Made by a program: the position numbers and the translations under genes
In this document: positions 1,274-23,041 of the stretch, piece after piece
Layout of the letters: the number at the start of each line of letters is the position of its first letter
Position numbering within the stretch: the first letter of the stretch is position 1
Notes under the pieces: generated by a model
The model's database searches: none
Told to the model about the DNA's origin: nothing
The model's input: the letters and a program-made list of their open reading frames with translations, nothing else
NCBI GenBank assembly: GCA_029933535.1
Contig: JAOZNZ010000003.1
Coordinates: 1 to 29,988, forward strand
DNA from: a bacterium
Lineage (GTDB): Bacteria; Auribacterota; UBA3054; B51-G9
Reading direction: 5' to 3'
Length of the DNA: 29,988 nucleotides

Positions 1274-1344
1274 TAGTGTTCAAGGTGTCAGGTGTCAGGT
1301 TTTAACTAATAACCATTAACTATTAATTATTAAATATTAACTAT
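1274..1344. repeat. Two abutting heptamer arrays: CAGGTGT-type (1281-1302) and TAACTAT-type (1303-1344)
   Basis: CAAGGTGT CAGGTGT CAGGTTT then TAACTAA TAACCAT TAACTAT TAATTAT TAAATAT TAACTAT; fills the sat-mtaB gap and overlaps the sat stop. Confidence 0.85.
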
Positions 1345-19386: not shown

Positions 19387-19398
19387 CAGCGATAATAA

Positions 19399-19488
19399 TG
19401 AATTAATGGATTAGTGGATTAATGGATTGATGTTCTCAACCTTCCAACCTTCCAACCTTCCAACCTTCCAACCTTTTAACCTTCTAAC
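19399..19488 (+). repeat. Two abutting octamer arrays filling the ptsI-leuS gap
   Basis: TGAATTAA TGGATTAG TGGATTAA TGGATTGA (19399-19430); TTCTCAAC CTTCCAAC x4 CTTTTAAC CTTCTAAC (19433-19488). Confidence 0.9.
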
Positions 19489-19495
19489 AATCATA

Positions 19496-21970
19496 ATGGA
19501 ATCTAAGTACAATCACCTAGAAATAGAACCTAAATGGCAACAAAAATGGCTCGATAAAAATGCCTTTGCTGCTGAAGATAATAATAAAACAAAAAAACCG
19601 GTCTATGTTCTCGATATGTTCCCTTATCCGTCTGGCGCAGGGCTACATGTCGGTCACCCGGAAGGTTACACCGCAACTGACATTTTTTGTCGATATCTCA
19701 GAATGGCGGATTTTAATGTCCTTCATCCTATGGGATGGGATGCGTTTGGCCTGCCTGCGGAGAATTATGCAATAGAGACGGGAACTCAACCAAGAGTTTC
19801 CACTGATAAAAACATTGCGCGTTTTAAAGAGCAAATTCAATCCCTTGGTTTCTCTTACGACTGGGACAGAGAAATTGATACAACTGACCCGGAATATTTT
19901 AAATGGACACAATGGATTTTTCTTCAGCTTTTCAAAAAAAACCTTGCTTATGAAGCTGAAATCCCGGTTAACTGGTGCCCGAAATTGAAAACTGTTCTCG
20001 CTAACGAAGAAGTTATTAACGGAAAGTCCGAACGTGGCGGTCATCCGGTTATTAAAAAACCTATGCGGCAGTGGATGCTTAAAATTACAGCTTATGCTGA
20101 AGAGTTACTTAATGATTTAGAACTTGTTGATTGGTCAGAACCAATTAAATTAATGCAGAGAAATTGGATTGGAAAATCCATCGGCGCGGATGTTGATTTT
20201 AGTATTCAGGTGTCAGGTGTCAGGTGTCAGAAGACAGAGGTCGGAGAACAGAGTTCAGAGTTCAGAGTTCAGGAAAAAGATACGGACCACGATCTTAATA
20301 TTCAAGTTTATACAACACGTCCTGATACACTTTTCGGTGCAACGTACATGGTTCTTTCTCCGGAACATCCTCTTGTTGATAAAATTACAACAGAAGAGCA
20401 GAAAGCAGCTGTAAAAAAATATCAGGAAACCGCATCTCACAAATCAGATCTTGAACGCACGGATCTTGCAAAAGACAAAACCGGTGTTTTTACCGGTGCT
20501 TATGCTATAAATCCGGCTAATCAAAAAGAAATTCCTGTGTGGATTTCCGATTACGTTTTAATGAGTTACGGTACCGGTGCGATAATGTCGGTTCCCGGCC
20601 ATGATCAACGCGACTATGAGTTTGCTAAAAAGTTTAATTTACCGATTATCCAGGTTATTTCCGGTGGGAATATTGAAAAAGAAGCACATGAAGGAGATGG
20701 AGAGCTGATAAATTCAGATTTTCTCAACGGCCTTTACGTTAAAGATTCTAAAAAGAAAATGACAGAATGGCTTGAAGAAAAAAATCTCGGAAAATATACC
20801 GTAAATTATAAACTTCACGATTGGGTTTTCTCGCGACAACGTTATTGGGGTGAACCTATTCCAATTATCCATTGCGAAAAATGCGGGCTTGTTCCCGTTC
20901 CGGAAGATCAGCTCCCCGTTACTTTGCCCGAAGTCGAAAAATACGAACCTACAGGAACAGGAGAATCTCCGCTTGCTAATATTGATGAATGGGTAAACAC
21001 AACCTGTCCGGAATGCGGTGGCGTGGCTAAACGCGAAACCAATACTATGCCTCAATGGGCCGGCTCAAGCTGGTATTATCTTCGCTATGCCGATCCGCAT
21101 AACAACAAAAGATTAATTAATCCTGAAAAAGAAAAATACTGGTTACCTGTTGATGTTTATGTTGGCGGCGCTGAGCACGCGGTATTGCATCTTTTGTATG
21201 CGAGATTCTGGCATAAAGTCCTCTATGATATTGGTGCTGTTTCTTCAAAAGAACCTTTCATAAAATTGCATAACCAGGGAATGATTCTCGGCGAAGACGG
21301 CGAAAAAATGAGTAAATCCCGCGGGAATGTTATCAACCCCGATGATGTTGTTAAAGAATACGGCGCGGATTCGCTCCGTCTTTACGAAATGTTCCTGGGA
21401 CCGCTTGAACAGCAGAAACCCTGGAATACGCACGGTGTTGAAGGCGTTTACAGGTTTTTACAAAAAGTATGGCGGCTGACTCAACATGAACTTGCTGAAA
21501 AACAGGATGCAGATTTAGAAAAAGCACGTCATAAAATGATAAAAAAAGTTACCGAAGATATTAAAAATTTTCGATTTAATACCGCTATCAGCGCAATGAT
21601 GATTTTCACAAATGAAGCGCAAAGTAAAAGCGCGACTCGCGAAGATATTGAAGCATTATTGAAATGTCTTTCTCCTTTCGCGCCGCATTTAGCCGAAGAA
21701 ATCTGGCAGAAATTTGGACATGAGGACTTAATTTGTTCAACAAAATGGCCAGCTTACGATGAATCAAAAACTATTGATAAAACAATTCAAATTGTTATTC
21801 AGGTCAATGGAAAACTACGCTCGAAATTAGTTTCTGAACTCAACGCGGACAAAAACGGTCTTCTTAAAATGGCGAAAGAGGATGAACACGTCCAAAAATG
21901 GCTTGAAGGAAAAACAATTATCAAAGAAATTTTTGTACCGAATAGATTAATAAATTTTGTCGTGAAGTAA
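19496..21970 (+). CDS. leuS: Leucine--tRNA ligase with 21-aa repeat-derived insertion
   Basis: [14 protein letters not shown] (HIGH), [51 protein letters not shown]; start moved from 19427 to ATG 19496. Confidence 0.97.
20207..20269 (+). repeat. Nine heptamers (63 nt) in frame within leuS
   Basis: CAGGTGT x3, CAGAAGA, CAGAGGT, CGGAGAA, CAGAGTT x3. Confidence 0.9.
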
Positions 21971-22058: not shown

Positions 22059-22379
22059 ATGAATGAAAAATATTTCCCATTTATTTTTTTTACGGTAATG
22101 ATATTAATGTTTGTTAATTTTTATCATCGTTTCTTAAAATTAAGAAATTTACTAAGAAAACACCACAAACCAGTATCAAATATTTTATGGGGTTTGGGGT
22201 TAGCCAGGGATATAAAACAAGCGAAACTGTTAATCAAAGAACTTGAAGATTCACAAGAAATTAAAGAAGTTAAAACAGCATTAATACAAACTAACATAGC
22301 TTATTTAATGATTTTTGTAATATTTTTTACTTTAGGTGCACTGCTTTTAATGTCTCCAAATATAAAATTTTCTTTTTGA
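22059..22379 (+). CDS. Small hypothetical membrane protein, two predicted TM helices
   Basis: Hydrophobic segments YFPFIFFTVMILMFVNF and IAYLMIFVIFFTLGALLLM. Confidence 0.6.
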   Translation: MNEKYFPFIFFTVMILMFVNFYHRFLKLRNLLRKHHKPVSNILWGLGLARDIKQAKLLIKELEDSQEIKEVKTALIQTNIAYLMIFVIFFTLGALLLMSPNIKFSF

Positions 22380-22401
22380 ACCACAACTTCAAATATCAGA
22401 T

Positions 22402-22449
22402 TTGACTTTATGCATAAAAAATGTTATTATTATGTATAGCTAATACATA
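22402..22449 (+). promoter_or_regulatory. vapBC promoter with palindromic operators
   Basis: TTGACT (22402-22407) - 17 nt - TATTAT (22425-22430); palindromes TTATGCATAA (22408-22417) and TATGTAT-5-ATACATA (22431-22449). Confidence 0.7.
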
Positions 22450-22463
22450 AAAGGAAGCATATT

Positions 22464-22664
22464 ATGAGAACAACAATCGATTTAGATGATGCAATTATTA
22501 AAGCCGCTATGAAAGTTACCGGCGCTAAAACAAAAAAAGAAGTCGTTCACCTGGCGCTTGATGAACTGGTACGTAAACAGCGTCAGGAAAATATGACAAA
22601 ATTACGGGGAACATTTCCCGATATGTTGACGGTATCTAATCTTCAAAAACTTCGCGCACAATAA
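22464..22664 (+). CDS. vapB: VapB-type antitoxin (ribbon-helix-helix, DUF2191-like)
   Basis: MRTTIDLDD...AMKVTG.KTKKEVV..AL.ELVR; TAATG overlap with the PIN gene. Confidence 0.85.
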   Translation: MRTTIDLDDAIIKAAMKVTGAKTKKEVVHLALDELVRKQRQENMTKLRGTFPDMLTVSNLQKLRAQ

Positions 22665-23041
22665 TGATTACTCTCATTGACACCTCTGCGTGGATAGAAT
22701 ATCTGCGACCTCATGGCAACAGTGCCGTTGCTGATACTGTTGAGGAAGTTTTACTAACAGGCAACGCCGGTTTATGTCCGTTAATTGAATTAGAGCTTCG
22801 TGTAGGTTCGCGCAGCAAAACTGAAGACAAGCAACTTTCAGAATTATTTAATTCTTTAATCCAATTACCGATGTCTGATAAAGTGTGGAATTATGCTTAT
22901 CATTTATCTACTACACTGAGAAGAAACGGACATACTATTCCGGCAACCGATATTGCAATTTATTCTTGTGCGAAAGTTAATAACGCAAAATTACTTGCAA
23001 ACGACAAACATTATTTGTTGATAGCAAATAACATAAAATAA
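22664..23041 (+). CDS. vapC: PIN-domain VapC toxin
   Basis: LIDTSAWIEYLR, ELEL, IPATDIAI, LLANDKHY. Confidence 0.9.
   Translation: MITLIDTSAWIEYLRPHGNSAVADTVEEVLLTGNAGLCPLIELELRVGSRSKTEDKQLSELFNSLIQLPMSDKVWNYAYHLSTTLRRNGHTIPATDIAIYSCAKVNNAKLLANDKHYLLIANNIK

Follow-up and report, generated by a model that had tools for sequence, protein, structure and literature searches.

The leucyl-tRNA synthetase (LeuRS) gene leuS in a window of 29,988 nt (the whole stretch of DNA analysed, contig C20 or JAOZNZ010000003.1 of the bacterial assembly GCA_029933535.1) carries nine tandem heptamers within its coding sequence, shortly before the codons of TTRPDT, the Thr-rich motif of the CP1 editing domain. The source genome, referred to as G000, is a metagenome-assembled genome (MAG) of 4.49 Mb, 1046 contigs and 78.7% completeness, and genome-wide counts for this fragmented, incomplete MAG are lower bounds. 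We favour, with a probability of roughly 0.72, the reading that the array is real and inherited, was seeded from a repeat family of the genus, has been changed by slippage and filtered for reading frame, and is tolerated in a permissive loop of the enzyme. In an ancestor of the group of related species, a short array of CAGGTGT type would have entered the tip of the hairpin leading into CP1, either by ectopic recombination with another array or by a process linked to the intervening-sequence protein (IVP) cassettes described below. The tract would then have expanded, contracted and decayed, most likely through replication slippage and point mutation, with purifying selection removing leuS variants that broke the frame or created a stop. 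Because leuS is essential and apparently single-copy, only in-frame, stop-free variants would survive, and the array is most likely translated as a disordered surface loop of about 21–25 residues, which, judging from the structure model and the hypervariability of the loop, would be near-neutral for enzyme function.

The array in leuS and the loop it encodes

The array spans positions 20207–20269 (63 nt) and, read directly, consists of CAGGTGT x3, CAGAAGA, CAGAGGT, CGGAGAA and CAGAGTT x3 (Table 1). Tandem Repeats Finder (TRF) returned two perfect period-7 arrays for this region, at 20206–20230 (score 50) and 20249–20272 (score 48), and the first base of the tract lies 780 nt (260 codons) past the first base of the open reading frame (ORF) 19427–21970, that is, on a codon boundary. 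Sequence, TRF and ORF position are therefore in agreement with an earlier note on this DNA, which had described nine heptamers of 63 nt in total inserted in frame in leuS. With head-to-tail units in the 5–11-nt range far above chance, the tract has the makeup of a heptanucleotide long simple-sequence repeat (SSR). It contains no stop codon in any + strand frame, as the note had also observed, a property that needs no explanation, because a stop-free heptamer present three times is read in every frame anyway. On the reverse strand, CAGGTGT and CAGAGTT each contain TGA, and therefore only the present orientation could survive in a gene. Three decayed units in heptamer phase follow the array; the KD codons among them may be ancestral loop residues, and GGACCAC/ACCACGG is a further array unit of the G000 genome. 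The expectation that removal of the 63 nt would leave a spacing close to normal needs correction, as the loop is then still 4 residues longer than that of insert-free relatives. Intergenic CAGGTGT copies elsewhere in the window, to which the note had pointed, are present, and two octamer arrays in the spacer between ptsI and leuS place the repeat system at leuS's own junction.

The leuS product is a full-length LeuRS: it matched T. thermophilus LeuRS (1H3N) with E=1e-238 and contains HVGH, KMSKS and TTRPDT, the features of a bacterial LeuRS with a CP1 editing domain. In an alignment of 21 sequences TTRPDT was nearly invariant, P276 being kept in at least 90% and the five other residues in all. 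The gene was the only match at the LeuRS level in G000. Its translation probably begins at the ATG at 19496 (MESKYNH...), given that the sequence upstream is an octamer array: the TTG start of the mechanically called ORF (19427) falls inside the CAACCTTC array, the 23 codons before the ATG happen to be open, and the translated octamer array at 19427–19495 is almost certainly not protein.

The insert corresponds to residues 238–258 of LeuRS, numbered from the ATG at 19496. In an AlphaFold2 model built from the 21-sequence alignment (mean predicted local distance difference test score, pLDDT, 85.5; predicted template modelling score, pTM, 0.80), residues 241–265 had a pLDDT below 50 and no secondary structure, and were located between strands 227–239 and 267–273, where T. 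thermophilus LeuRS (1H3N) has a mere EGKE turn between the equivalent strands. The tract is thus predicted to lengthen the tip of a beta-hairpin located 14 residues before TTRPDT and to form a disordered loop, which the low model confidence and the hairpin geometry suggest to be surface-exposed. The earlier placement of the insert in a loop just before the editing motif is borne out by this model. Some LeuRS of Planctomycetota (P0012–P0024) extend this CP1-entry hairpin by loops of some 35 residues, which are unrelated and apparently non-repetitive, suggesting that the site tolerates insertions and that this hairpin is a recurrent, generally permissive insertion point across phyla. An equally long, non-repetitive loop in a distant LeuRS is what the earlier note had named in advance as evidence against its reading, and such loops do occur; we read them as site tolerance, and as such they do not argue against a repeat origin of the leuS insert.

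The array is not an assembly artefact. Logan contigs of independent studies crossed it without an indel (run X5, record 15, 20126–20598; run X8, record 29, 20134–20289), overlapping contig pieces in X2 and X7 agreed with it, and no array indel that would mark length variation within a population was found across the contigs of these four runs, which drop rare variants. Moreover, six other assemblies (ENA, JGI, NCBI) contained heptamer-phased inserts at the same codon position. The array is thus spanned by contigs that are identical over its whole length. The explanation that it arose by misassembly through the repeat, or is removed before the protein stage as an intron, an intein or by translational bypass, is scarcely credible and already largely refuted by these contigs and assemblies, and 63 nt are too few for an intron or intein and bring no structure, stop codon or frame change. 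Two observations speak in its favour: the G000 assembly owes its fragmentation in large part to the repeat system, with 179 of 2092 contig ends stopping in a 7–9-nt array, and read depth spikes over the CAGGTGT part of the leuS array, owing to copies elsewhere. Contig ends at position 20238 in runs X5 and X7 run from CAGGTGT-CAGAAGA into different heptamer strings, e.g. CAGAAGACAGATGTCAGACGCC; these continuations may stem from different loci or from further leuS alleles of the same sediments.

On the 3' side of leuS, a DUF6364/PIN toxin-antitoxin-like pair was found in three of four relatives (L117, L118 and L120, with L119 lacking it; cf. positions 22059–23041 of the window), and the varying gene order suggests a variable spacer region beside leuS.

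Table 1. Coordinates of the leuS array and related features (positions refer to the window unless a contig is named).
Feature	Position	Strand	Evidence or remarks
leuS (leucyl-tRNA synthetase), 824 aa	19496–21970	+	ORF list, translation, LeuRS motifs, 1H3N match
(CAGGTGT)x3	20207–20227	+	encodes QVSGVRC; commonest tandem heptamer of the genome
variant units CAGAAGA CAGAGGT CGGAGAA	20228–20248	+	encode QKTEVGE; six units in congener G003
(CAGAGTT)x3	20249–20269	+	encodes QSSEFRV
three decayed heptamer-phase units CAGGAAA AAGATAC GGACCAC	20270–20290	+	QEKDTDH; common to other insert-bearing alleles
TTRPDT, Thr-rich CP1 editing-domain motif	20312–20329	+	14 codons past the array
AGGTGTC x2.6 (= CAGGTGT unit)	1283–1300	+	intergenic; TTAACTA array then at 1302–1345
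octamer arrays TAATGGAT x4.6 and CAACCTTC x6.5	19396–19488	+	ptsI–leuS spacer
DUF2961 paralogues	C951:168–2480 and C567:123–2315	-	hypervariable in-frame heptamer/octamer region inside the Pfam domain
paralogous IVP cassettes	C809:1–654, C164:7730–8221, C194:1308–1820		PF05635 gene between inverted CAGGTGT-type arrays

Insert alleles of related genomes

No insert was found in the same-genus G001-type sequences, in P0009 and P0025–27, or in the LeuRS of any other order examined except some Planctomycetota, which agrees with the earlier claim that the array is a net insertion. The closest congener, G003 (95% identical), carries 12 units there, which makes its array exactly 21 nt longer than that of G000 (CAGGTGT x2, CAGTGTT, CAGAAGA, CAGAGGA, CGGAGGA x2, CAGAGGA, CGGAGTT, CAGAGTT x3), a copy-number difference between close relatives (9 units vs 12) of the kind that marks long SSRs. 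Further alleles, 88–94% identical overall, were obtained by a database search with the region. Eight alleles were then compared in heptamer phase, and the extra length was counted against the insert-free segment of 42 nt. The seven insert-bearing alleles were all heptamer-phased and all different in length and sequence, exceeding this segment by 42 nt (P0004), 48 nt (G002), 51 nt (P0008), 63 nt (P0005), 72 nt (P0003), 75 nt (G000) and 96 nt (G003). About three CAGGTGT-like units open the alleles of G000, G003, P0003, P0005, P0004 and P0008, and G002 opens with CAGAAGA-type units. A CAGnAnA AAGAyAC GGACCAC block comes next in G000, G003, P0003, P0005 and P0008, preceded by extra units in G000 and G003, and the ends differ individually, as with the four ACCACGG-type units in P0004.

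The frame is kept in all seven alleles, and whole 21-nt steps cover only part of the length variation. The proposal that selection had kept a unit number divisible by three therefore holds for the youngest pair, G000 and G003, and only as retention of the frame across the whole set. Likewise, the predicted series of 0, 3, 6, 9 or 12 units describes G000 vs G003 and the +63 and +42 alleles, and fails for those of +48, +51, +72 and +75 nt.

When the insert columns were left out and the tree was rooted with same-order genomes, the insert-free P0009 and P0025/26 were basal, and the insert-free G001-type clade was sister to the insert-bearing G002 with 99% support in the Shimodaira-Hasegawa-like approximate likelihood ratio test (SH-aLRT). 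A single clade of all insert-bearing alleles was rejected by the approximately unbiased (AU) test (p = 0.02), which points either to a single gain with one clean loss or to gain on two occasions. The G002 insert resembles the others (AAGA..TACGGAC) as judged by eye only. Taken together, the alleles suggest that the array is old, decaying and was present before the species split. The view that a repeat system invaded a coding sequence thus stands as far as the units come from a genome-wide family, but not as a fresh invasion.

Persistence of an insert at this site through several speciation events could also mean that LeuRS has gained the loop under selection for a function, for example in CP1 movement, editing, tRNA contact or binding of a partner, with repeat DNA as its raw material only. 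In line with this idea, Planctomycetota evolved their long loops at the same hairpin, which, according to the model, 1H3N and general knowledge of LeuRS, adjoins the strands linking CP1 to the catalytic core. We consider it improbable, because every allele differs in length and sequence and has no conserved motif past the repeat-derived start, the segment is predicted to be disordered, a well-supported sister clade keeps the ancestral short loop, and the leuS units are also used in an unrelated protein family (DUF2961, see below).

The alleles also bear on the idea that the tract is a contingency switch, in which slippage by one or two units would toggle leuS. A precedent is the AAGACTC tract of neuO, the O-acetyltransferase gene of E. 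coli K1, whose product is full-length only at unit numbers divisible by three, with the repeats being translated; neuO is a dispensable prophage gene that acts as an ON/OFF switch with 3–53 perfect units and is OFF in 65.6% of genomes (PMC13001214). Like neuO, leuS contains a 7-nt repeat within the coding sequence that can be read through only at multiples of three, and its perfect triple runs would be able to slip. The leuS tract differs in being short, degenerate and always in frame, and in residing in a gene whose OFF state would be lethal, as leuS is essential. Its perfect runs have only three units, a second leuS was not found in the 78.7%-complete genome, and all seven alleles and all spanning contigs were in frame, so that common OFF alleles, in this small sample, and a long perfect tract in a dispensable gene are both lacking. 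Phase variation of leuS thus appears very unlikely.

The genome-wide repeat family and IVP cassettes

The leuS units belong to a repeat system that extends over the entire genome and is mainly intergenic, in keeping with the earlier note, which had derived them from repeats at gene junctions. After joining of overlapping TRF rows, G000 contained 1297 period-7, 703 period-8 and 850 period-9 arrays. Among raw TRF rows, 883 period-7 arrays reached a score of at least 40, compared with 3 in a block-shuffled genome, and 561 reached at least 50, compared with none after shuffling; chance does not account for these arrays. ACACCTG/CAGGTGT is the commonest tandem heptamer of G000 (132 arrays, approximately 924 copies), followed by TTAACTA. 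The 21-mer (CAGGTGT)3 gave 323 overlapping hits in G000, 51 in G003, 5 in G001, 2 in G002 and 2 in G005, which belongs to another family; 26 other relatives gave no hit, and neither did a control with the pattern reversed. The CAGGTGT family is thus largely confined to the genus. G000 is larger (4.5 Mb) than its congeners (2.4–2.9 Mb), whose NCBI records carry a Chlamydiota/Chlamydiae label and derive from Guaymas-type vent and sediment metagenomes; DUF2961, FG-GAP, GH2 and PKD domains on other G000 contigs are unusual content for chlamydiae, so that this label should be taken with caution.

Only 11% of the period-7 arrays were located well inside stop-to-stop ORFs of at least 150 aa, though such ORFs make up 84% of the genome. 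TTAACTA and other units with stop codons on both strands were never found well inside ORFs in G000, and six of the six CAGGTGT arrays inside ORFs were sense-oriented. The polarity of CAGGTGT relative to neighbouring genes showed no clear bias, the upstream neighbour pointing the same way in 37 cases and the opposite way in 44 (ORF calls approximate). The genome-wide scan for unit-encoded peptides that the earlier note had proposed returned, for the two main units in six frames, 421 open segments, only 13 of which had at least 150 residues, and in most of these the peptide was within a few residues of the ORF end, where spacer arrays run into gene ends. The peptide was deep inside the protein in two cases only, that of leuS and that of a DUF2961 protein encoded on C951, and the DUF2961 family is the only other one to share the units deep inside a gene. 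In its two paralogues, the array region is located between conserved NEYKSLxMGM and FEFYSYWYMPFE blocks and differs in length between them (about 95 aa vs about 55 aa). Its vocabulary (CAGGTGT, CAGAAGA, CAGAGGT, CAGAGTT) is that of leuS; the CAGGTGT-CAGAAGA junction was found only in leuS and the C951 gene of G000, and CAGAGTT alternates with CAGGTGT in the gene on C567. A frame filter is supported by the scarcity of arrays inside ORFs, the exclusion of stop-containing units from them, the sense orientation of all CAGGTGT arrays in ORFs, and the DUF2961 arrays, which are in frame at different lengths. Long ORFs on five other contigs (C757, C992, C328, C587 and C797; FG-GAP, GH2, PKD, BlaR1-M56/beta-helix and multi-glycosyltransferase proteins) contain 7- or 8-nt arrays of other units, which, judged by position, apparently fall in linkers between Pfam domains.

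A second set of loci linked to the leuS units consists of genes for the 23S rRNA IVP (PF05635). Twelve such genes scored above the Pfam cut-off in G000, and at least 7 of the 12 were flanked by inverted tandem arrays of 7–11-nt units. In three paralogous cassettes, which share 83–86% identity across about 500 nt, the left arm is of CAGGTGT type and the right arm of ACACCTG, with up to 24 units (C809); inverted arms built from different 7–11-nt units flank at least four more IVP genes. The right arm in C809 starts with (TGACACC TGAACTC)x2, that is, CAGGTGT alternating with CAGAGTT on the other strand, and a single cassette family therefore uses both perfect leuS units in its arms. On this basis the leuS array could be the solo arm or footprint of an active IVP-cassette element resembling an intervening sequence (IVS), left by cassette-linked, sequence-specific deposition, which would be compatible with later slippage. 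The choice of units fits this account, as an array formed independently by slippage would be unlikely to settle on the commonest heptamer of the genome. Several copies of PF05635 genes occur in each of the array-rich G001, G002, G003 and G005, and none was found in the array-poor G010, a co-occurrence that is a hint only, since the five genomes are related and non-independent. In the IVS of Coxiella, two or three tandem GACAGAT heptamers, variable in number between strains, precede the S23p ORF (PMC4990558).

The leuS tract has the units of the cassette arms but not the inverted arms that form a stem around a PF05635 ORF. No PF05635 match was found on contig C20, no inverted partner for the array in or near leuS, and no RNA structure of the tract beyond that of shuffled controls (folding z = -0.03). 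Compared with IVS/IVP cassettes, it is thus without partner, ORF of its own or hairpin, and it resides in an mRNA coding region, not in rRNA. Moreover, an enzyme for such deposition was not identified, and solo CAGGTGT arrays (about 130) outnumber the three cassettes by about 40 to 1, so that cassettes may sit in or borrow existing arrays. The leuS tract is therefore a solo arm at most. We regard an origin from a cassette as possible and advance it tentatively; the broader proposition, that heptamer arrays in general are not passive microsatellites but the product of active, sequence-specific seeding tied to IVP cassettes, with the leuS tract as a solo arm in coding DNA, is somewhat more doubtful. 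If it were true, in-frame arrays in essential genes would be natural footprints of a widespread bacterial mobile-repeat system, and IVP proteins would gain a function.

Several points weigh against an inherited array shaped by slippage and a frame filter. Slippage alone does not explain the presence of CAGGTGT at more than 130 loci or its entry into a coding hairpin, and steps of 21 nt account for only some of the length differences among the alleles, which means that indels of other kinds contribute. That the insert was kept in at least six species-level lineages could mean that the loop acquired a use, the incomplete MAG (78.7%) may leave room for a second leuS, and no RNA run was found to hold the stretch.

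Known repeat systems and significance

Heptanucleotide long SSRs are an established class in bacteria, including TAACTGA in Beggiatoaceae and cyanobacteria and the cyanobacterial short tandemly repeated repetitive (STRR) heptamers, according to the summary of Mrazek, Guo and Shah 2007 in PMC4679880. MacGregor 2015 (PMC4679880) described TAACTGA arrays inside ORFs in the one orientation that is free of stops, giving LSVISYQ repeats. The G000 system resembles this class in its head-to-tail 7-nt units, its hundreds of mostly intergenic arrays, its several unit families and its restriction to a lineage, and its second unit, TTAACTA, is similar to TAACTGA. The leuS case differs in that the host is a conserved essential enzyme and not a hypothetical protein, that the site could be mapped to a structural hairpin, that seven diverged alleles show the tract evolving, and that the lineage is one labelled Chlamydiota.

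The earlier note had drawn a parallel to the palindromic elements of Rickettsia, which is useful as an analogy and does not extend to the palindrome. These elements, the subject of work by Ogata et al. in 2000, are reportedly palindromic units of fixed length, about 100–150 bp, that occur in frame in surface segments of conserved or essential proteins. They are alike in being dispersed repeat DNA tolerated in frame, whereas the leuS tract consists of direct, tandem repeats without palindrome, hairpin or excess structure and varies by unit number. The tandem repeats of Borgs, in which all units inside ORFs are divisible by three and give perfect amino-acid repeats that mostly create disordered regions and evolve fast (PMC9879509), share with G000 a genome-specific burst of tandem repeats, both intergenic and in ORFs, and repeat-derived disorder. 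In leuS, the unit of 7 nt is not divisible by three, the peptide repeats only every three units, and the frame is saved by the total length. The heptamer long-SSR class was thus already known; what is new are the host gene and the site, the allele series, the lineage and the sharing of units with IVP cassette arms.

In practice, arrays of this kind fragment assemblies and can mislead start-codon calls, and gene callers could mis-set starts throughout G000, as at leuS. The leuS array is a clean natural example of non-triplet repeat DNA entering and persisting in an essential, highly conserved enzyme, in which the reading frame and the absence of stops are the only visible filters and the outcome is a hypervariable, disordered loop at a permissive hairpin. 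The seven alleles and the insert-free clade form a ready series in which growth, decay and loss of the tract can be measured, and with which one can test whether the CP1-entrance hairpin accepts arbitrary insertions. The link between the leuS units and the IVP cassette arms provides a lead, open to testing, as to where the heptamer repeats of bacteria come from.

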